Source: Octopus vulgaris
Lineage: Eukaryota
Length of the DNA: 64,000 nucleotides
Direction: 5' to 3'
NCBI GenBank assembly: GCA_951406725.2
Contig: OX597824.1
Location: forward strand, 49,414,001-49,478,000
How positions within the stretch are numbered: the first letter of the stretch is position 1; each line of letters opens with the position of its first letter. The translations under genes were made by a program, and so were the position numbers. Under the pieces are notes generated by a model that searched no databases, was not told where the DNA came from, and was given only the letters and a program-made list of their open reading frames with translations. Of this stretch, positions 7,015 to 43,289 are shown piece after piece.

Positions 7015-8212
7015 AAGGAGTGATGCCAGGGTTGTGAAATCTTGCATGCATTAATTTCAACCCTTCCTATTAATAACTGCATTGTTGCTTTCCAGGTAAA
7101 CTGACATCTGACTGGTCAAAGAAGACTTCAATAGTAATTAGTAGCAACTTGCCTTGAAAATGGGCAAGATTTGGCATCATAGTGTTATCAAGTACCTGTA
7201 AAAAAAAAAATGTAACCCCTAAGGGCATTCACGCTGATCTGGTTGCTACATTAGGGGATGATGTTCCAGCTTTATCAACAATGCAAAAGTGGTCAACTGA
7301 ATTTAGGTGGATGAAAGAGTCTTGAGGAAGACCTGCAGTCTGGATGTCTTGTAACTGTCACCACTAAGGAAAACCTTGATTGTATTCACCACATGGTATT
7401 GGATGACAGGGGATTGACTATAAATCAAATAGTCAATGCTATTAGCATATCCCGTGAGAGAGTTGAGAATATTCTGCGCAATGAACTTGTCATGACAAAT
7501 GTTTCTGTTCGCTGGCTGCCACATCTTCTGACACCTGATCAAAAGCGCCCCAGGTTGATCACATCACGGGAAAATCTAACATTGTTTAAGGAAGATCCAG
7601 CTGGTTTCCTTAAACGTTTCCTAACCCAGGATGAGTGTTTGGTTCATCACTTTGAGCCAATGAGACAATCCATGCAGTGGAAACGCCCACCTCATCTGCT
7701 CCAAAGTCATTTAGTCAACAGGGAATATGATGGACTCAGTTTTTTGGAGATGCAAAAAGTTCCACACTATCAATGGAGTGTACTATGCCAATTTGCTGAG
7801 GCTATGAAGACCAAATGCCCAGGAAAGCTGAAGAAAGAGGTCTTGTTTCAACAGGACAATGCTCCAGCACACAAGTCATTGGTTTCAATAGCTGCTGTGC
7901 ATGACTCTAGCTTTGAACTGGTTGATCAGCCTCTCTATTCTCCTGATTTAGCAACATCTGGCTATCGTGTTTTACAGCATGAAAAGACACTTGGCTAGGA
8001 ACCAGTATTGCAGTGATAATGATGTCGTATCTGCTGTTGATGACTTTTTTGAGCAACAGGATGAAAACTTCTTCAATGGGATCCAAGTACTGTGACACTG
8101 AGTAAGAAGTGTATGGACTACACGGGAAACTATGTTGAAAAATGAATCTCATTTGATCACGTTCTATGAGAGTATCTTGATCTACCTAAGAACTTTTCAA
8201 CCAACCATTGTA
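7015..8212 (+). mobile_element. Mariner transposon, degenerate transposase
   Basis: ORF 7393-7998 has WLPHLLT, LTQDE, FQQDNAPAH and YSPDLA motifs of mariner DD34D transposases; frameshifted. Confidence 0.9.
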
Positions 8213-14971: not shown

Positions 14972-16830
14972 CTGGTGTGTTATGTGTTAAGTGTTCCAAA
15001 AGTATAATTGGCAGAAAGAGAGCCTGCCAAATGTTAACCCAACTGAGGGACCAGTTATCTGAATTGACAGTACCTTGGTAGATAAAACGATTAAGGGAAT
15101 GAAGATAAGGAAAGCACCCAGCCCATCAGGAATCCTCACTGAAATGCTTAAAATATCTGGTGGTATAGGCTATGGTCTAATCACCTGTATTGTCAACCAG
15201 GTGGTACATGAAGGAGTCATACCCAATGACTGGTGTAGTAGTACCATAGTTAACTGTTACAAAGGTAAAGGTGATGCCTTAGATAGAAATAATTACAGAG
15301 GTATCAAATTGTTGGCTCAAGTGATAAAAGTTACGGAGAGGGTCATAGCCCAACTAATTAGGGAAAGAGTTAGTTTACATGAGATGCAGTTTGGTTTTAT
15401 GCCAGGGAGAAGCACCACTGATGCTATATTTCTAGTAAAAAAGCTGCAGGAGAAATACCTCGCCAAAAATAAAGCCTTGATCCCTTATCTGGTGGTCAAT
15501 GCAGAAACTAAGGATAGATGAGTGGTTGAAGAGAGCTGTACAAGCTATGTACAGGGATGCTGTCAGTGAGGTGAAAATTGGCAACAAGTATAGTGAAGAC
15601 TTCAGGATACAAGTAGGGGCTCACCAAGGATCGGTGCTCAGCACCTTGTTCATCATAGTCCTCCAGGCAATAACAGGAATTCAAGACAGGTTGCCCCTAG
15701 GAGCTCCTCTATGCTGATAGCCTTGCTCTTATAGCTGAATCACTACCAGAACTAGAGAAGTTTCAGGTGTGGAAGCAAGGTCTAGAATCAAAGGGCCTTA
15801 GAGTTAACCTAGCAAAAGCCAAAGTCTTAGTAAGTAGGAAAGCAGACAAATCACAAATCCCTTTAGGTAGATGGCCCTGCTTGATTTGTAGAAAAGGTGT
15901 ACGTAGAAACTCCATAAGAGATACCCAGTGTAAGCTATGAACACTTAAGAGGTGCAGCAATATCAGAGGAAAGTTAACAGGGAAAACAGTTTTTGTGTGT
16001 GGAAGGTGCACAGGTACAATTAACACTAAAAATGTTCAGGAACTAGATTCCATCATGTGCTGGGGGTGGAAAACTAGTAGTCAGTAGCTTCCTTTACCTA
16101 GGTGACCAGGTCAATAGTGGAGGTGGATGCTTTGAGAGCATAGCTGCTACATTACAAATAGCCTGGGCAAAGTTCAGAGAGCTCCTACCTCTGCTGGTAA
16201 TTATGGGCCTCTCTCTCAGAGTGAAAGACAGACTATGATGCCTGTGTGCAAACAGCCATGCTACGCGGCAGTGAAACATGGGCCGTAACTGCTGAGGACA
16301 CGTGTTGGTTTGAAAGGAATGAAGCTAGTATGCTTTGCTGTCACTGTGCATGTACAACAGAGTGTAAGTGTGTTGAGAGAAAAGCTGGGCATAAGAGGCA
16401 TCAGATGTGGTGCGCAAGAGAAATGACTGTACTGGTATGGTCATGTGATGCATATGGATGAGGATAGCTGTGTGAAGTGTTGCACTCTTATGGATGATAG
16501 AACATGTGGAAGAGGTATACACAGGAAGATATGAGATGGTGAAGCGCGATCTCCAAACGTTAGGCCTCATGGGGGCAATGACAAATGACCAAGACCTTTG
16601 GTGATATGCCATGCTTGAGAAGAGCCATCGAGCCAAGTGTGATTGTAGTCATGGCCAGTGCCGGTGTTGCGTAACTGGCCTGTTAAAAGCACCCTTCAAA
16701 CATTTAGTGGTATGCTGTGCTTGTGAAGATCTGTTGAGCCAAGTGAAATTGTAGTTGTGGCCGATACCTGACTGGCACCCGTGCTGGTGGCATGTAAAAA
16801 GCACCATTGAAGCATTGAGCCTCATGGAGA
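14972..16830 (+). mobile_element. Degenerate RTE LINE inside the SmD2 intron
   Basis: KAPSPSGI...IPNDWCSSTIVNCYKGKGDALDRNNYRGI...QFGFMPGRSTTDAIF; several frameshifts. Confidence 0.92.
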
Positions 16831-31477: not shown

Positions 31478-31892
31478 AAAAAACGTGCATACACTCAGAC
31501 ATACACGTACAGTGGTGCAAGTGTGAAGGAAGATACAAGTAAAATAAGCAGTACGTATTCACATACAACATATATTAATATAAATAAATAAATGTATATA
31601 CATATACACACATACATACACCCACACATATACAACCAAATACACATATACATATACATGCAAAAATGTATACATACCTACACATACATATACAAATATA
31701 TATATATATATATACACACACACATACACACACCTACAAACAAATTCATAAAACATAAACATTCACATACATGTACACACACACACATGTACACACGTAC
31801 ACACACATATATATATACATATCTACATATATATAAATAAATATACACCCCCACACACACACACACATATATATATACACATACATTTTTAC

Positions 31893-34030
31893 TACTAGTG
31901 AAAAGAAAGAGGCTTGGAGAAGCCATTATGAAAGACTGCTGAATGAGGAGAATGAATGGGAGGAGGAGAGCCTGCCAAATGTTGACCCAGTAGAGGGACC
32001 AGCTACCCGAATAGACAACTCCCTTGTAGATAAGGCAATTAAGGATATGAAACCAGGCAAAGCCCCTGGCCTATCAGGAATCACTGCTGAGATGCTTAAA
32101 ACAGCTGGCTATGTGGGCTATGCCATAGTCACCCGCATTGTAAACCAGGTAGTTCACAATGGAGTCATACCCAATGACTGGTGCAGCAGCACCATAGTCA
32201 ACTGCTACAAGGGTAAGGGTGATGCTCTAGATAGAAATAACTACAGAGGTATCAAACTGTTGGACCAGGTGATGAAGGTCTCAGAGAAGGTCATAACCAA
32301 TCTCATTAGGGAGAGAATTTGTTTAGATGAAATGCAGTTCAGTTTTGTACCAGGTAGAAGCACCACTGATGCTATATTCCTGGTCCGACAACTGCAGGAG
32401 AAGTACCTAGCTAAAGATAAACCCCTCTACATAGCTTTTGTAGACTTGGAGAAAGCCTTTGACAGGGTTCCCCGTTCCCTTATCTGGTGGTCGATGCGGA
32501 AACTGGAGATTGAAGAATGGCTAATAAGGGCTGTACAGGCTCTATACAGAGAGGCTGTCAGCAAGGTTAGGATTGGCAACGAATATAGTGAAGAATTCCG
32601 GGTAGAAGTAGGTGTGCACCAGGGCTCAGCCCTCAGTCCCCTTTTATTCATCATAGTCCTTCAGGCAATAACAGAGGAATTCAAAACGGGATGCCCCTGG
32701 GAGCTCCTCTATGCCGATGACCTAGCTCTCATAGCAGAATCACTACCGGAACTAGAAGAGAAATTTCGGGTGTGGAAGCAAGGGTTGGAATCAAAGGGCC
32801 TTAGAATAAATGTAGCAAAGACCAAAGTATTAGTAAGCAGCAAGAGGTACTCAGCACACACCCCCTCGGGTAGGTGGCCCTGCTCAACCTGTAGGAAAGG
32901 TACAGGTAGAAACTCCATAAGATGCACCCAATGTAAGTTATGGACACATAAGAGGTGCAGCAACATTAAAGGGAAATTAACAGATAAGATAGCTTTCATG
33001 TGCGGCAGATGCACAGGGACAATAGACACAACAGACACTCAGAAAACAGATTCCATCACACTCCAGGGAGAGAAACTAGAAGTAGTTGATAGTTTCCGCT
33101 ACCTGGGTGACCAAGTTAGTAGCGGAGGTGGATGCACAGAGAGTATCACCACTAGAATACGAATAGCCTGGGCAAAGTTCAGAAAGCTCCTACCCCTACT
33201 GGCAACAAAAGGTCTCTCCCTCAGAGCGAAAGGTAGATTGTATGATGCATGTGTGCGAACTGCCATGCTCCACGGTAATGAAACATGGGCTGTGACTGCA
33301 GAAGACATGCGTAGACTTGAAAGAAATGAAGCTAGCATGATCCGCTGGATGTGTAGTGTCAGTGTGCACGCAAGACAGAGTGTAAGCATCCTGAGAGAAA
33401 TGCTGGATATAAGAAGCATCAGATGTGGTGTGCAAGAGCGACGCTTGCGATGGTATGGTCATGTGCTGCGGATGGATGAAGAGAGATGTGTGAAGAAGTG
33501 CCACTCCCAAACAGTTGAAGGTATCAGGGGGAGAGGTAGACCCAGGAAGACATGGGATGAGGTAGTCAAGCATGACCTCAGAGCATTGGGCCTCACTGAG
33601 GCAATGGCGAAGGACTGAGATCTCTGGAGATATGCTGTGACTACAAAGACCCGGGCTGCTTTCTGCAGCAATTCCACTTACCCCCTACCCATTCTAAGTA
33701 CCCCGGATCCCCAAAGTACCCTGGATCCCCAAAGTACCCCGATCCCCAAAGTACCCCGGACCTCGTTGCCCCCGTGCCGCTGACACGTTAAAAGCTCGAA
33801 CCGATCGTGACCGATGCCGGACCCTCCGGCCCCTGTGCAGGTGGCACGTAAAAGTACCCAATCCACTCACGGAGTGGTTGGCGTTAGGAAGGGCATCCAG
33901 CCGTAGAAACTCTGCCAGATTCAGACTGGAGCCTGGAGCAGCCCCTGGCTTCCCAGACCCGGTCGAACCGTCCAACCCGTGCTAGCACGGAAAGCGGACG
34001 TTAAACGATGATGATGATGATGATGATGAT
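31893..34030 (+). mobile_element. 5'-truncated RTE LINE with a long intact ORF, 3' UTR and (GAT)n tail
   Basis: Frame is open from about 31896 (SEKKEAWRSHYERLLNEE) to 33618; ends gttaaac(gat)n. Confidence 0.97.
32047..33618 (+). CDS. RTE reverse transcriptase with a PHD-like C4HC3 finger (no APE domain, 5'-truncated)
   Basis: FVDLEKAFDRVP, GVHQGSALSPLLF, LLYADD, FRYLG, RRLRWYGHV, RGRGRPRKTW; the final TGA is probably a CGA>TGA premature stop. Confidence 0.93.
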   Translation: MKPGKAPGLSGITAEMLKTAGYVGYAIVTRIVNQVVHNGVIPNDWCSSTIVNCYKGKGDALDRNNYRGIKLLDQVMKVSEKVITNLIRERICLDEMQFSFVPGRSTTDAIFLVRQLQEKYLAKDKPLYIAFVDLEKAFDRVPRSLIWWSMRKLEIEEWLIRAVQALYREAVSKVRIGNEYSEEFRVEVGVHQGSALSPLLFIIVLQAITEEFKTGCPWELLYADDLALIAESLPELEEKFRVWKQGLESKGLRINVAKTKVLVSSKRYSAHTPSGRWPCSTCRKGTGRNSIRCTQCKLWTHKRCSNIKGKLTDKIAFMCGRCTGTIDTTDTQKTDSITLQGEKLEVVDSFRYLGDQVSSGGGCTESITTRIRIAWAKFRKLLPLLATKGLSLRAKGRLYDACVRTAMLHGNETWAVTAEDMRRLERNEASMIRWMCSVSVHARQSVSILREMLDIRSIRCGVQERRLRWYGHVLRMDEERCVKKCHSQTVEGIRGRGRPRKTWDEVVKHDLRALGLTEAMAKD

Positions 34031-34429: not shown

Positions 34430-35133
34430 GTCTATCCAGTGGCCTTTGCCAGGGATGCAGCCAGCCCACTTATGCGTACCTTTCCTTCTTTGGACACATG
34501 AAGACCTGTTGAGGCAAGTGAAGTCGAAATTGAATTCGAAATCGAACCTCATCAGACGACTGGCACCCATGCCAACCTTCCTTCGTTGGACACTAAACTC
34601 TGCTTGCGAAGACCTGTTGGGGCAAGTGAAATCGGAATCGAAATTGAATCAATTCTATGACTGGCACCCGGCAGTTGCCAGTGCCGCTGGACTGACTCCT
34701 GTGCAGGTAGCAAGTAAAGAAACACCGTTTTGACCCTGTGCTTGAGGAGACCTATTGAGTCAAGTACATCAACATCAAAAATCAATGGAAATTGTAGTTG
34801 TGATCCCTGTGCCAGTGGCACGTAAAAAGCACCATCCAAACGTGACCGATGACAGCGCCGCCTTGACTGGCTTCCGTGCTGGTGGCACGTAAAAAGCACC
34901 AACCGATCATGGCCATTGCCAGCCTCACGTGGCTGGCTCCCGTGCCAGTGGCACGTAAAAAGCACCCACTACACTCATGGAGTGGTTGGTGTTAGGAAGG
35001 GCATCCAGCTGTAGAAACACTGCCAGATCAGACTGGAGCCTGGTGCAGCCTTCAGACTTCCCAGACCCCAGTCGAACCATCCAACCCATGCTAGCATGGA
35101 AAATGGATGTTAAACGATGATGATGATGATGAT
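34430..35133 (+). mobile_element. RTE 3' UTR fragment with internal repeats and (GAT)n tail
   Basis: gtggcacgtaaaaagcacc occurs three times; same 3' end as 33840-34030. Confidence 0.8.
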
Positions 35134-36451: not shown

Positions 36452-36545
<94 letters not shown>

Positions 36546-36614
36546 TATATATATATATATTACATATATAGACATATACATATATACATATATATATATG
36601 TATATATATATATG

Positions 36615-36660
<46 letters not shown>

Positions 36661-36879
36661 AATAACACATATTTATACATATATGTATATATATATATAA
36701 ACCTTTAGTTAAATATATTCAATGAGAATACTATATGCTGAATTTATATTGAGTGCTCTATTGTATCAAAGTATTAATACTATTAATATAATTTATATAT
36801 TTAATACGAGTGATTATATATATTTTATAATATATTATTATTAATATTGATTTCCTTATATTAATAATAATATGTTACA

Positions 36880-36914
<35 letters not shown>

Positions 36915-36927
36915 AATATATATACAT

Positions 36928-36974
<47 letters not shown>

Positions 36975-37150
36975 CATAAATATATATATATATATATAAT
37001 ATAAGGGACATTAGCCAACTGAATATGGCTAGGGACAGGGCAGGGTGGTGGGGGTGTCACTGTTGCATTTAGCCCCAGGCGAACATCAACGTCACCAGAT
37101 AGGCCGACGCCATCACGGCGTCCTCTATCTTGCAAAGGGAGATCATTCCC

Positions 37151-37229
37151 CAAGAAGCGGATGCCACACACGGACCTAGGTTTCAAGGTGTATTGCCTAT
37201 TATCAACATGTGGTAGGCACCGCCTCTCG
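37151..37229 (-). ncRNA. Type I hammerhead, U3:A8 variant (unit 1)
   Basis: Reverse complement of the 37841-37919 motif; one C>U change gives a G-U wobble in stem I. Confidence 0.8.
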
Positions 37230-37505
37230 ACGAACGACTCACCGTGCAAGATATATATAAAGATTTTCAAGTAAATACATTTACTGATTTCGAAAATCTG
37301 TTCGACAGCAATAATAATTCTCTAAATGAGATATAGACAGTGACTGCTCCATAATATAAGGGACATTAGCCAACTGAATATGGCTAGGGACAGGGCAGGG
37401 TGGTGGGGGTGTCACTGTTGCATTTAGCCCCAGGCGAACATCAACATCACCAGATAGGCCGACGCCATCACGGCGTCCTCTATCTTGCAAAGGGAGATCA
37501 TTCCC

Positions 37506-37584
37506 CAAGAAGCGGATGCCACACACGGACCTAGGTTTCAAGGTGTATTGCCTATTATCAACGTGTGGTAGGCACCGCCTCTCG
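37506..37584 (-). ncRNA. Type I hammerhead, U3:A8 variant (unit 2)
   Basis: Reverse complement of 37841-37919. Confidence 0.82.
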
Positions 37585-37840
37585 ACGAACGACTCACCGT
37601 GCAAAATATATATAAAGATTTTCAAGTAAATACATTTACTGATTTCGAAAATCTGTTCGACAGCAATAATAATTCTCTAAATGAGATATAGACAGTGACT
37701 GCTCCGTCCCTTATATTATGGAGCAGTCACTGTCTATATCTCATTTAGAGAATTATTATTGCTGTCGAACAGATTTTCGAAATCAGTAAATGTATTTACT
37801 TGAAAATCTTTATATATATCTTGCACGGTGAGTCGTTCGT

Positions 37841-37919
37841 CGAGAGGCGGTGCCTACCACACGTTGATAATAGGCAATACACCTTGAAACCTAGGTCCGT
37901 GTGTGGCATCCGCTTCTTG
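37841..37919 (+). ncRNA. Type I hammerhead, U3:A8 variant (inverted unit)
   Basis: cgagaggcgg-ugcc-uac-cacacg UUGAUAA u-agg-caauaca-ccu-u GAAA ccuag GUC cgugug-u-ggca-u-ccgcuucuug; predicted cleavage after 37897. Confidence 0.82.
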
Positions 37920-38116
37920 GGGAATGATCTCCCTTTGCAAGATAGAGGACGCCGTGATGGCGTAGGCCTATCTGGTGACGTTGATGTTCGCCTGGGGCTA
38001 AATGCAACAGTGACACCCCCACCACCCTGCCCTGTCCCTAGCCATATTCAGTTGGCTAATGTCCCTTATATTATGGAGCAGTCACTGTCTATATCTCATT
38101 TAGAGAATTATTATTG

Positions 38117-38153
<37 letters not shown>

Positions 38154-38529
38154 TACATATATATATAAATGAACGTATATATATATATATTTATATATAT
38201 GTATATATAAGAATTTCTACAGGCAGACCACAAGGTTTAGAATGTCAACTGATAAAGTACCATATGTGTGAGATGTTTTGACTGTCACATTTGAATTTGA
38301 TTTTGCATGTTACAGTTGTTTTGCTTTGCAATGATAGTGCATGTTTCCACTTCACTTTTAAGAGGGCTTTTGACTGTATTACAAATTCAAGCTTGTGCTT
38401 CGCCAAAGTTTGTTTTTATTGTTTACTCACACATTTGATTAAGCTACATCAGATTGGTGTGCAATTTCTTTAATACATACACCAGACAATCTTCTTTTAA
38501 ATTGTTTGCGTATATACGTTATGATTAGA

Positions 38530-40230
38530 TAGAAATAACTATAGGAGTATCAAATTATTGGATCAGGTGATGAAAGTTATAGAGAGGGTCATAGCCCAAC
38601 TAATTAGGGAGAGAGTTAGCCTAGACGAGATGTAGTTTTGTTTTGTGCCAGACAGAAGCACCACTGATGCTATATTTCTGGTAAGGCAACTGCAGGAGAA
38701 ATATCTAGCCAAAGATAAACCTTTGTACTTTGCTTTTGTTGACTTGGAGAAAGCTTTTGACATGGTCCCCTGATCCCCTATCTGGTGGTCAATGCAGAAA
38801 CTGGGGATAGATGAGTGGTTGGTAAGAGCTGTACAAGCCCTGTACAGGGATGCTGTCAGTAAGGTGAGGGTTGGCAATGTGTATAGTGAAGAATTCCGAG
38901 CAGAAGTAGGGGTTCACCAAGGCTGTCTTCAGACCCCTCTTATTCCTTATAGTCCTCCAGGCAATAACAGAGGAATTCAAGACAGGCTGTCCCTGGGAGC
39001 TCCTCTATGCTGATGACCTTGTCCTAATAGCCAAGTCACTGCCAGAACTAGAGATGAAGTTTAGGGTGTGGAAGCAAGGTCTAGAATTGAAGGGCCTTAG
39101 ATTCAACCTAGCAAAAACCAAAGTCTTAGTGAGTAGGAAGGCTGTCAAACCACAATCCCCTTCAGGTAGATGGCTCTGCTTGATTTGTAGAAAAGGCATA
39201 TGTAGAAACTCCATACGATGTACCCGGTGTAAGCTATGGACACATAAGAGGTGCAGCAATATCAAAGGAAGTTTAACCGGGAAAATAGTTTTTGTGTATG
39301 ACAGATGCACAGGGGCAATAAATACTGAAGATGTACAGACAACAGATTCCATCACATGCCACTGGGAGAAACTAGAACTTAATAGTTTCCGCTACCTAGG
39401 CAACTAAGTCTGTAGTGGGGGTGGTTGCTCTTAGAGTTTAGCAGCTAGAATAAAAATAGTCTGGGCAAAGTTCAGGGAACTCCTACTTCTGTTGGCAACT
39501 AAGGGCCTCTAACTCAGGATGAAAGGTAGACTGTATGACGTATATATGCGATCTGCTATGCTACACAGCAGTGAAACATGGGCCATAACTGCTGAGGGCA
39601 TGTGTAGGCTTGAAAGAAATGAAGCTAGTATGATCTGTATGGTAATATCAGTGATCTGATGTGTAATGTCAGTATGCATACACTAGGAAGGAACCTGTGG
39701 AAGAGATAGACCCAGGAAGACATGGGATGAGACATTGGGCCTCGCAGAGGCAATGACAGGAGACCGAGACCTTTGGAGATATACTGAGAAGACCTGGCAA
39801 CTAAAGTGAGATCACAGTCACAAATGTTCATCCCAGTTAAGAGTAGTTCTGATGCATTGTGTATCAGGCTTGAGAAGACCTGTTGAGTCAAGTAAAACCA
39901 ATATCGTAGCTGTGGCCGTGCCCACTGACTGACTCTCATCCTGGTGGCATGTAAAAAGTACCAACCGAATATGGCCAATGCCAGTAACCCCTGACTGGCT
40001 CTTGTGCTGGTAGCACGTAAAAAGTACTATCCAAACGTGATCAATGCCAGGCCTGCGTGACTGACTCTTGGAGTGATTGTTGTTAGGAAGGACATCCAGC
40101 TGTAGAAACATTGCCAGATAAGATTGGAACCTGGTGCAGCCGCTGGATCCCCAGACCTCAGTCAAACCGTCCAACCCATGCCAACATGGAAAACGCATGT
40201 TAAACGATGATGATGACAATGATGATGATA
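38530..40230 (+). mobile_element. Degenerate RTE LINE with 3' tail
   Basis: RT fragments collinear with the 32047 ORF; (gat)n tail near 40207. Confidence 0.92.
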
Positions 40231-41049: not shown

Positions 41050-43289
41050 GATACCTTGCAGTATGAGTTTAATCCATTCCAGCTCCCCAAAGCCACCCAG
41101 AAATAATTTTTTATGGATTTTAAAACGGAGAAGGTACAGTTACAAGGAAAATGACAATTATAAAAACATAATAAAAGAGAATGCAAAAGAAATATGTAAA
41201 CTGGTTTTATTAATTGAATTACCTTAAAGATGGGACGATTTATGTGTGAGGAAGACAATGAAGCGTTGAGAAGGATTACTGTTTTCTTTTGTTTTCTCTC
41301 TCACTTCACTTAATTTAGGCTTTTTGGGACACTTTCTTCACTTTTCACACATATCTTTTCATTAGAAACATATCGAGAGAAGTCTGCTTTTTCCTGCTTT
41401 TCAAAATGTTATGAAAACGTGCCAGAGCAGTGTCATTAAATAAAGCAGTTGCATGACCTGTAGATACTTTTTCAAGATGATTTTTTTTCTACAAATTCAG
41501 AAACATACTGCCACTTTGCCAACACTGCCTTATGTCACTTGTAGAGATAGTCATCTCTGCTAAACTGTCTTCCTCTGGGGAATCAGTCTCTTCCACGGTA
41601 TCCAAATGCTGCTGCTCCTGAAGCTGCAGGAGTTCATCTGTCATCAGCTCCTTTGAGTGTTCATCAACGATATCGTTAATGTCCCTGTCATCAACCTCAA
41701 GGCCCATGGACTTGCCAAGAGACACTATCTCCTCAACTACAGGTGTCTCAGACTCAAACCCTTTGAAGTCTCTTTTGGATATGCAGTCAGGCCATAGTTT
41801 CCTCTATGCAGAATTCAGTGTTCTCCTTCTCCCACCCTTTCAGGCCATATCAATGATTTACAGGCAGTAAACAATGTTGTAATGCTCCTTCCAAAACTCA
41901 TGAAAGGTTAGATTTGCATTTTTGGTGACTTCAAAGCACCAATGAAACAAGTGTTTGGCATACAATTTCTTAAAATTAGAAATCACTTGTTGGTCCATAG
42001 GCTGCAAGATACGGGTGGTGTTGCCTGAAAGGTACAGAACTTTTATAAATTTGAATTCATCAAGGATGTCATCTTCGAGGTTAGGAGGGTAAGCAGGAGC
42101 ATTGTTGAGGATGAGGAGGGCCTTGAGAGGAAGATCGTTCTTCAGAAGGTATTTTTTCACTGCTGGCCCAAAGATAAGGTTGACCCACTCGAAGAATTGC
42201 CTGGTAATCCAAGCTTTAGCATTTGCCCTCCACAGCTTCTCCTTCAGGATTTTGTGTAACTTGAATGCTTGTGGATTTTGGGAATGGTAGACGAAGAACG
42301 GCTTAATCTCCACTCACATTGGTACAAGGGGCAAGAATTAACCTTTCATAGGCTTGTGGCCTGGTATTTTCTTATCCTCTGCAGTTATGTAGGATCTTCT
42401 TGGCATTTTTTAACAAAAAAGGCCAGTTTCATCACAGTTGAATACCTGTTGTGTGATGTGCTCCTTGGCTGTGATGAGCTGATGGAATTCATGCACGAAA
42501 TTCTCAGCTGCCTTCATGTCAGAACTCACTTCTCCATATCTGACAACGTTATGAACACCAGTCCTCTTGTTGAAATTATCAAACCAGCTGTGACTGGCCT
42601 CAAATGCATTTGCTGATGTTTCCTCCATTGATGTTCCAGGGTTCTGCTTCAGGAGATCCCCATACAGTGCTCATGTTTTCTCACAGATATCCTCTGTCAT
42701 CGTATTTCCTGTGAGTTGCTTCTTGTTGATCCATAGGAGAAGTCATTTTCCCATGTCTTTGTGGACAGATGTGTGTTGCATAGAGAGCCTGGAGACAACC
42801 TTTGGCTGTTGTAATGGCCTTGGTCTCATCCTTTTTCTTCAGGATGGTGCAGATTGTTGATGCTTCGGCTGTATTGGCATGCTATGTCCACTACATACAC
42901 TTCTCTCACATGTTTATCAATGATTTCCTTCTTCAATTTTATTGTAATCAGTTTTTTTCTTCTTGGTACTGTCCTTTGCCTTCTTAGGAGCCATGGCAAA
43001 CACAACTAATTATTATAATGGCAAAAGCACACAAAATTAAAAAAAAAAAGCACTGGGCAAAATACAACAGAGATGCTGCCACAACAAGATAAACATGTGA
43101 ACTGAGTGAGTGGAGGCCGTGCTTGTTGGGAGAGTGTGTGCAAGCTCAGCACCAACTAGTGGTCACATGTATGAAACTCACTTATACTGCAGAGTTCCAT
43201 TTGTACTTCAAGACAAAAATTCACATGAGCCTTGGCTTGTACAGCAAATTGCTTGTACTATGATGCACTCGTACTGCAAGGTTCTACTC
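41046..43289 (-). mobile_element. pogo/Tigger transposon, decayed
   Basis: FEASHSWFDNF, QQVFNCDETGLF, LLILNNAPAYP, ILQPMDQQVISNFK; imperfect TIRs (accttgcagtatgagt / actcgtactgcaaggt). Confidence 0.9.

Follow-up and report, generated by a model that had tools for sequence, protein, structure and literature searches.

The window analysed here, a stretch of 64,000 nucleotides from Octopus vulgaris, contains a short repeat that lies within (TA)n and carries a hammerhead-like motif. This locus raises the questions of what kind of element the repeat is, which enzyme inserted it and from which form of RNA it was copied. As argued below, the repeat is very likely a retrozyme mobilised by Penelope-like elements (PLEs). 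More precisely, it would probably be a young insertion of a protein-free 355-nt animal non-LTR retrozyme, written by a Penelope-type reverse transcriptase-endonuclease from a predicted circular RNA.

Layout of the insertion

The initial annotation described two tandem 355-bp units with a directly abutting inverted copy, placed between (TA)n tracts and differing at a few positions only. This description is borne out by TRF, which gives a 355-bp period with 2.0 copies at 99% identity at 36996-37705, and by the alignment of the arms. Between the two tandem units, on the minus strand, 3 positions are different, as are 3 of 399 in the inverted arm. The parts of the insertion are as follows.

36453..36995, no strand: left (TA)n-rich target tract (the TA tract call spans 36453-37003)
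36996..37705, minus strand: left arm, 710 nt, made of exactly two laps of the 355-nt unit; its 3′ end, 36996, is the fixed end E1 and continues into (TA)n
37706..38118, plus strand: right arm, 413 nt or 1.16 laps, abutting the left arm head-to-head with no gap; its 3′ end, 38118, is the fixed end E2
38119..38209, no strand: right (TA)n target tract (the TA tract call spans 38118-38209)
38075..38118, plus strand: 44-nt "tail" between E1 and E2, predicted to be bounded by two reverse-transcription start sites by analogy with the PLE described in PMC11167929
38040..38057, plus strand: conserved hairpin just 5′ of E1, with two pairs invariant in 23 of 23 aligned rows; candidate protein recognition site
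38094..38106, plus strand: small hairpin within the tail, some 12 nt ahead of E2; candidate recognition site
37173..37527, minus strand: predicted 355-nt cut-to-cut monomer, a candidate circle (modelled circular fold, z −5.1 against 60 shuffles)
37846, plus strand: G in all three units of the insertion, where the subfamily consensus is A (4 of 4 other loci that are informative); variant at the level of the template

No target-site duplication is readable in the flanking (TA)n. The unit has a GC content of 46%. The absence of a credible ORF holds as well: stop-free frames do not exceed 131 codons, the length of the longest one across unit junctions, and a 123-codon plus-strand frame has no match in Pfam. 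Thus, the repeat shares with animal non-LTR retrozymes the lack of protein-coding capacity; its subfamilies are separated by indels.

The hammerhead motif and its fold

Each of the three units carries the words of a type I hammerhead in order, with a variant core. In the right arm, the motif is organised as follows.

37841..37919, plus strand: type I hammerhead motif with extended stem I; predicted cut after 37897
37858-37863/37898-37903, plus strand: proximal stem I
37864-37870, plus strand: core UUGAUAA
37864..37869, plus strand: core pair, here U3:A8, which is C3:G8 or U3.G8 in sister subfamilies
37871-37885, plus strand: stem II
37886-37889, plus strand: GAAA
37889-37896, plus strand: palindromic stem III ACCUAGGU, followed by GUC and the predicted cut
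37817-37825/37936-37944, plus strand: outer helix closing the hammerhead-bearing rod; together with extended stem I, pair probabilities of 0.84-1.0
37522..37567, minus strand: copy of the motif in unit 2, with the cut predicted after 37528
37167..37212, minus strand: copy of the motif in unit 1, with the cut predicted after 37173 and a U.G wobble in stem I owing to a single change at 37208

All the helices that had been named by eye are therefore present in the sequence, and the two predicted cut sites on the minus strand are exactly 355 nt apart. The unit folds better than its shuffles (z −4.65; 0 of 100 as good). The energy model of the monomer gives stems II and III a pair probability of 0.0, and the hammerhead-competent monomer fold lies about 7 kcal/mol above the minimum (−112.9 versus −120.0). 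RNAalifold recovers stems I and II and leaves out stem III. Rfam scans of the unit up to E 10 return no hammerhead, and the miRNA matches they return are TA repeats. The core departs from the consensus at positions 3, 8 and 10.1/11.1.

A superfamily of hammerhead repeats

The 355-bp repeat of the window is one subfamily of a hammerhead-repeat superfamily in this genome. Searching the 2.8-Gb genome with the exact core pattern gives 233 matches (control 0), so that the count of genomic copies suggested by the initial annotation indeed reveals a dispersed family. A DNA search gives 152 matches from the best 40 scored of 1,504 first-look candidates, and a relaxed hammerhead pattern has 3,396 matches genome-wide (control 16). 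The relatives are homologous along the entire unit, which measures about 353-364 nt in them. In the eight close subfamilies, copies are only 0.5-1.0% away from their own consensus (0.57% for the window locus), which indicates that the family is young.

Other members or products of the superfamily were met in the course of these searches. A young 353-bp sister subfamily (L219, L289; G000:C4:22080500-22085500) has a fully canonical hammerhead, with C3:G8 and G10.1-C11.1; it counts 2,250 first-look candidates, and one of its arms runs for 6.0 laps at 99%. More distant is a hammerhead repeat with U3:A8 and a 4-nt palindromic stem III, seen in two copies 96% alike (L052:5860-6100, L149:1-270). At L287:1113-6640 (G000:C1:94320500-94328500), four 1,382-bp tandem copies, 99% alike, each hold one truncated retrozyme with microsatellites and a LINE fragment; this array is probably a local DNA duplication. 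A similar duplication of 1,630 bp is found at L217.

Covariation and the 3:8 core pair

Covariation was studied on 23 aligned rows with a mean column identity of 65%. The core is invariant in these rows save at positions 3, 7 and 8. The named structure is paired in 86.3% of the cells versus 75.1 ± 1.1% in shuffles (0 of 500), a control that ignores the relatedness of the rows and includes distal stem I columns that align poorly. When the structure is slid along the alignment, only 21-48% of the cells are paired. Both sides have changed in 16 of the 23 pairs, compensatory changes occur in stems I-III, and stem III is paired in 97.8% of the cells. The 3:8 pair is formed in 23 of 23 rows (C-G 13, U-G 6, U-A 4). 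Thus, the covariation that had been proposed as a check is found both in the stems and in the core pair and, to judge from the aligned sequences, the hammerhead is under selection.

These data also bear on the idea of a dead ribozyme relic, or of a satellite spread by DNA-level duplication, in which the fold would be incidental. The silence of Rfam, the non-consensus core positions and the presence of some copies in local DNA duplications (L217, L287) would agree with this idea. It is, however, very hard to reconcile with the conservation of the core and with the compensatory changes in stems I-III, as well as with copies that are dispersed over many contigs and whose 3′ ends are fixed while their 5′ ends vary. 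Moreover, mismatched C3.A8 cores are few, 74 genome-wide, and scattered. A relic or a satellite therefore appears most improbable.

The distribution of the 3:8 states clarifies the origin of the unusual core. Genome-wide, U3:A8 is found 572 times, U3.G8 712 times and C3:G8 about 2,038 times (by subtraction). A8 occurs in 572 of 1,284 U3 cores (45%) versus 74 of about 2,112 C3 cores (3.5%). In the tree, U3 arises once (100/100) and at least three A8/G8 changes are then needed. Hence, U3:A8 is one state of a pair loosened by a C3>U change and not a fixed hallmark. It would represent a tolerated state, reached after that single change, with position 8 then toggling between G and A. The U3:A8 core put forward by the initial annotation does stand as a paired, covarying feature, but its novelty was overstated, since U3-A8 covariation was described in Schistosoma PLE hammerheads, with about 1,300 hits in Schistosoma mansoni (PMC4209133). 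Likewise, the U-U mismatch at 10.1/11.1, raised as a caveat, is present but carries less weight than was given to it. Position 10.1/11.1 is paired in only 6 of the 23 rows, the mismatch being the norm of the superfamily, and the axolotl hammerhead HHR_Amex2, which has U.U at the base of stem II, is reported to cleave weakly on its own and better in dimeric form (PMC7229834).

Stem III was tallied by hand among 100 listed matches out of the 3,396, which are not independent copies: six different palindromes account for 78 perfect cases, 10 others are wobble-compatible and the remaining 12 are broken. These palindromes fit the expectation of cleavage as a dimer. On the practical side, about 1,300 of the roughly 3,400 hammerheads are missed by standard C3/G8 descriptors and by Rfam. 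The whole set, with its three 3:8 states, offers natural sequences for measuring the swap of a catalytic pair.

Anatomy of the insertions and enzyme class

To map the insertions, 98 loci of the close subfamilies were fetched and 6 were dropped as overlapping. The remaining 92 had been selected for a full-length match or an intact core, a choice that biases the arm lengths; these range from 0.15 to 3.5 laps. Two arms are found at 52 loci, a single arm at 35 and a complex arrangement at 5, amounting to 139 arms. Their 5′ ends are scattered. On the other hand, their 3′ ends fall at two points only, E1 and E2, 44 nt apart, and 121 of the 139 arms end in TA. Among the two-armed loci, 43 of 52 combine E1 with E2 and 9 have one degraded end; E1/E1 and E2/E2 combinations are both at 0. 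The 52 arm junctions show an overlap of 1-8 nt in 26 cases and of 39 nt in one, a flush joint in 10 and filler in 15. The phases of the 5′ ends of the two arms show no significant link (permutation p 0.13). The same E1+E2 rule is followed by 17 of 18 two-armed loci in the C3:G8 sister subfamily (32 loci, two of which resemble a duplicated pair).

PLE insertions have been described as containing partial tandems, an inverted truncated copy and a 30-40-bp tail, with a bias for (TA)n (Craig et al. 2021, PMC8557442). According to Frangieh et al. (2024, PMC11167929), a purified PLE protein cuts and extends both strands and starts reverse transcription at two internal sites that bound the tail. The octopus insertion ends and two-arm layout match these properties and, on this sequence footprint, a Penelope-type enzyme class is well supported. 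The mobilisation proposed in the initial annotation agrees with what is seen at the mapped loci, namely 5′ truncation, TA target, two fixed 3′ ends and an inverted arm. Its description of a young, dispersed, non-coding type I hammerhead repeat of the retrozyme kind is likewise upheld, covariation, copy number and insertion ends being in agreement.

Search for a partner PLE

The octopus genome contains two intact autonomous PLE families, of Hydra type and Neptune type, whose insertions have the same two-end, (TA)n and inverted layout. Together with the one-arm-per-end footprint, their presence makes the template and the partner of the retrozyme accessible to direct test. A DNA profile of the superfamily was compared with 106 PLE-bearing loci, and no autonomous PLE with homologous ends was found among them. 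The profile matched at 5 of these loci; four of the matches are retrozyme insertions in their own right and the fifth is a piece of 98 bp (L127).

The Hydra-type family (717-codon frame, 2,590-bp unit) was rejected as a partner with detectable end homology; its tail measures about 67 nt instead of 44. The Neptune-type family (781-codon frame), with a tail of about 38 nt instead of 44, also has no detectable end homology. Next to L040 and L065, PLE fragments occur that were inserted separately and do not belong to the repeat.

These PLE families deserve a short description. The Hydra-type PLE is very young (L097:1159-3312, L101-L110; e.g. G000:C21:8153500-8163400), with many intact copies among the best 150 scored of 6,921 candidates. 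Its protein has RWK, DKT and CxCx5C motifs as described in PMC8557442 and no match in Pfam. Its insertions in (TA)n are two-armed, with ends about 67 nt apart, and its hammerhead core reads CCGAAGA (U4C). A divergent Hydra-like fragment with stops is present at L046. The Neptune-type PLE is young too (L163:2842-5187, L161-L176), and Pfam detects RVT_1 and GIY-YIG in its frame. It carries a minimal hammerhead with a U3:A8 core and a palindromic stem III, and 23 of 42 motifs lie at its first end and 9 at its second. A third family (L111-L130), with a C-terminal GIY-YIG, is decayed: it has 4,146 candidates, and most of the scored copies contain stops.

Could the repeat be the terminal repeat (pLTR) of an autonomous PLE, seen through heavily truncated insertions? 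Its ends, tail and TA target match those of PLEs, Xenopus retrozymes are reported to be homologous to pLTRs and the active Neptune-type family also has a U3:A8 core. However, multi-lap arms close on their own unit, and the ORF with reverse transcriptase and GIY-YIG that an autonomous PLE contains is absent from the unit and from between the laps. In addition, four of the only 5 profile matches among the 106 PLE-bearing loci are separate retrozyme insertions, and the full 6-bp and 4-bp helices of the repeat are unlike those of the minimal PLE hammerhead. Such an origin is thus judged very unlikely.

The template of the insertions

The predicted cut site is crossed by 124 of the 139 arms, and at least twice by 33 of them, which excludes a cut linear monomer as the template. 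Only 4 of the 139 arms have a 5′ end within 5 nt of the cut site, about the chance level; hence, cutting left no direct footprint. The variants carried by individual insertions are more informative. In subfamilies of four or more loci, 32 variants are present in every copy of an insertion (22 of them across both arms), 211 in a single copy, 3 in part of the copies and 0 in one whole arm. The corresponding numbers in the sister subfamily are 18 (6 across both arms), 84, 4 and 0. Variants common to all copies of an insertion imply that one template variant serves both arms and all laps. This pattern fits a single template, likely circular, behind all units of one insertion. A monomeric circle explains the shared variants as well as arms of 3.5 and 6.0 laps, the shared variants also fitting a multimer from a young, uniform source.

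The latter possibility has to be considered. The same element and the same type of enzyme may be at work with an uncut, linear multimeric transcript as the template, so that no circle would be needed. The hammerhead would then be kept for another step, such as the trimming of read-through RNA or the binding of a protein. In the anole PLE, the main substrate is unprocessed RNA, hammerhead cutting is not needed for insertion and no reads end at the cut site (PMC11167929). The lack of a 5′-end pile-up at the octopus cut site and the monomer fold, which disfavours the active core, point in the same direction. So does the divergence within loci, 1.15-1.24%, compared with 1.04% to the nearest other locus (73 loci); with values so close, the sources are uniform either way. 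On the contrary, multimeric arrays would lose length to 5′ truncation with every generation, and arms of 3.5 laps nevertheless exist, as does one of 6.0 laps at 99% in the sister subfamily. The unit length also stays at about 353-364 nt despite a mean column identity of 65%, and variants shared by only a subset of the copies are few (3 and 4), with 0 restricted to a whole arm. Overall, an uncut multimer seems a possible but rather unlikely template.

Returning to the circular template, the following sequence of events may be envisaged. A tandem copy would be transcribed, and two hammerheads would pair through their palindromic stem III, cut and release the 355-nt monomer, to be closed by a host ligase. 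The PLE enzyme pair would cut both strands of a (TA)n tract, and two cDNAs would be primed on the same template, one at E1 and the other at E2. Each cDNA would run round the circle for 0.15 to 3.5 laps, after which both would be linked head-to-head, in many cases through 1-8 nt of microhomology. As for the RNA itself, relatives are present in contigs from runs guessed to be RNA (organisms A to E), contigs being unable to show strand, ends or circles, and none of the listed sequence sets matching the core is on record as RNA. Xenopus retrozymes call for caution as to cleavage, eight of nine dimers being reported not to cleave in vitro.

Do the variants carry a trace of RNA editing?

In a first tally of all-copy variants, A>G accounted for 14 events and T>C for 3. 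The tally was then reduced to site-by-subfamily events, dropping repeats and 2 likely ancestral retentions. This leaves A>G 9 versus T>C 3 in the close subfamilies (p 0.034); the sister subfamily has 5 versus 1 sites (p 0.13), and both sets together 14 versus 4 (p 0.010). Among subfamily-fixed changes, the ratio is only 18 to 13. The lean of all-copy variants towards A>G hints weakly at RNA editing. Among the same variants, G>A and A>T are elevated too, and the sequence contexts are mixed, several sites having a 5′ G. A 5′ G is disfavoured by editing enzymes.

A different contrast concerns C>T, which accounts for 54 of 211 single-copy changes but for only 2 of 32 among all-copy variants and 2 of 69 among the changes fixed in subfamilies. 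Judged by this contrast, inherited variants do not resemble what ordinary ageing of the genome would leave. It may be imagined that the superfamily evolves mainly as RNA. Circles would be altered at the RNA stage, A-to-I editing being among the causes, and copied from both break ends by the Penelope enzyme pair, and position 8 of the ribozyme itself would be switched between A and G by the same route, U3 having rendered both acceptable. We hold this idea as speculative, with the chances rather against it. If true, one edit would appear in every unit of a new insertion, and the genome would be a countable record of RNA edits made heritable. A natural walk through a catalytic core, from C3:G8 to U3.G8 and back and forth to U3:A8, would also be on record.

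Comparison with known elements

The octopus repeat resembles animal non-LTR retrozymes (Cervera and de la Peña 2020, PMC7229834; Li, Clavereau and Pollet 2026, bioRxiv 10.64898/2026.07.22.740005) in many respects. It is a short non-coding unit within the 150-450 bp range, repeated head-to-tail and dispersed, with one type I hammerhead per unit, a GC content below 50%, a self-paired fold and no LTR, PBS or PPT, and it coexists with PLEs. Retrozyme repeats of 350-390 bp in mussel and of 330/350 bp in axolotl are reported to give circular RNAs, and axolotl HHR_Amex2 shares the U.U at the base of stem II (PMC7229834). Differences exist, however. The octopus core is U3:A8 or U3.G8 where that of the described animal retrozymes is C3:G8, and the octopus copies sit in (TA)n as short inverted insertions with two arms and two fixed ends. 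In contrast with the account given of Xenopus retrozymes, no homologous pLTR was found here among the 106 PLE-bearing loci.

With EN+ PLEs, as described in PMC8557442 and PMC11167929, the repeat has in common 5′ truncation, partial tandems, an inverted 5′-truncated copy, a tail at one end, a (TA)n or AT-rich target and a hammerhead near the ends. It differs from them by the absence of an ORF for reverse transcriptase and GIY-YIG, by a whole unit of only 355 nt and by a tail of about 44 instead of 30-40 bp. Finally, the Schistosoma U3-A8 hammerheads (Cervera and de la Peña 2014, PMC4209133) also have palindromic 15.2-16.2 positions and are predicted to cleave as dimers. They are minimal and mostly single motifs, whereas the octopus motif has full helices I and II and a 3-bp helix III. 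It is devoid of the G10.1-C11.1 pair and has U3.G8 and C3:G8 relatives within one lineage. Assignment to the minimal PLE hammerheads, which are described as having a short helix I, a long helix II, G10.1-C11.1 and little or no helix III, was rejected: the octopus motif has a 6-bp proximal helix I with an extension and a helix II of 3-4 bp, and the 10.1/11.1 pair is the exception in the alignment.

What appears to be new is the family and its end rule. Animal retrozymes, their proposed Penelope link, U3-A8 cores and the U.U base of stem II have all been published, so that little is new in kind; each ingredient having a precedent, a known picture is sharpened and no new class is opened. A 2020 review (PMC7761336) presents animal retrozymes as having no conserved motif that would indicate the mobilising enzyme, and PLEs have been proposed as likely mobilisers from co-occurrence and pLTR homology. 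In the octopus, the insertion ends themselves show the PLE footprint, with a strict one-arm-per-end rule. Our literature search returned no description of the 355-bp family or of an end rule for retrozymes; Repbase, Dfam or supplements may hold the unit under another name. The main text of the octopus repeat-annotation paper (PMC13282606) has 0 matches for "ribozyme" or "retrozyme".

Other repeats in the window

Apart from the retrozyme, the window contains a 593-codon LINE reverse-transcriptase frame with a PHD-like finger at 31837-33618 on the plus strand (RVT_1, E 2e-29). Pieces related to this frame are located at 15063-15521 and 38910-39407, a decayed relative beginning about 400 bp to the right of the insertion. 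The frames at 7315-7998 and 41858-42313 resemble what we take to be DDE transposase fragments. Two related tandem repeats of 66-67 bp are found at 34804-34966 and 39925-40050.
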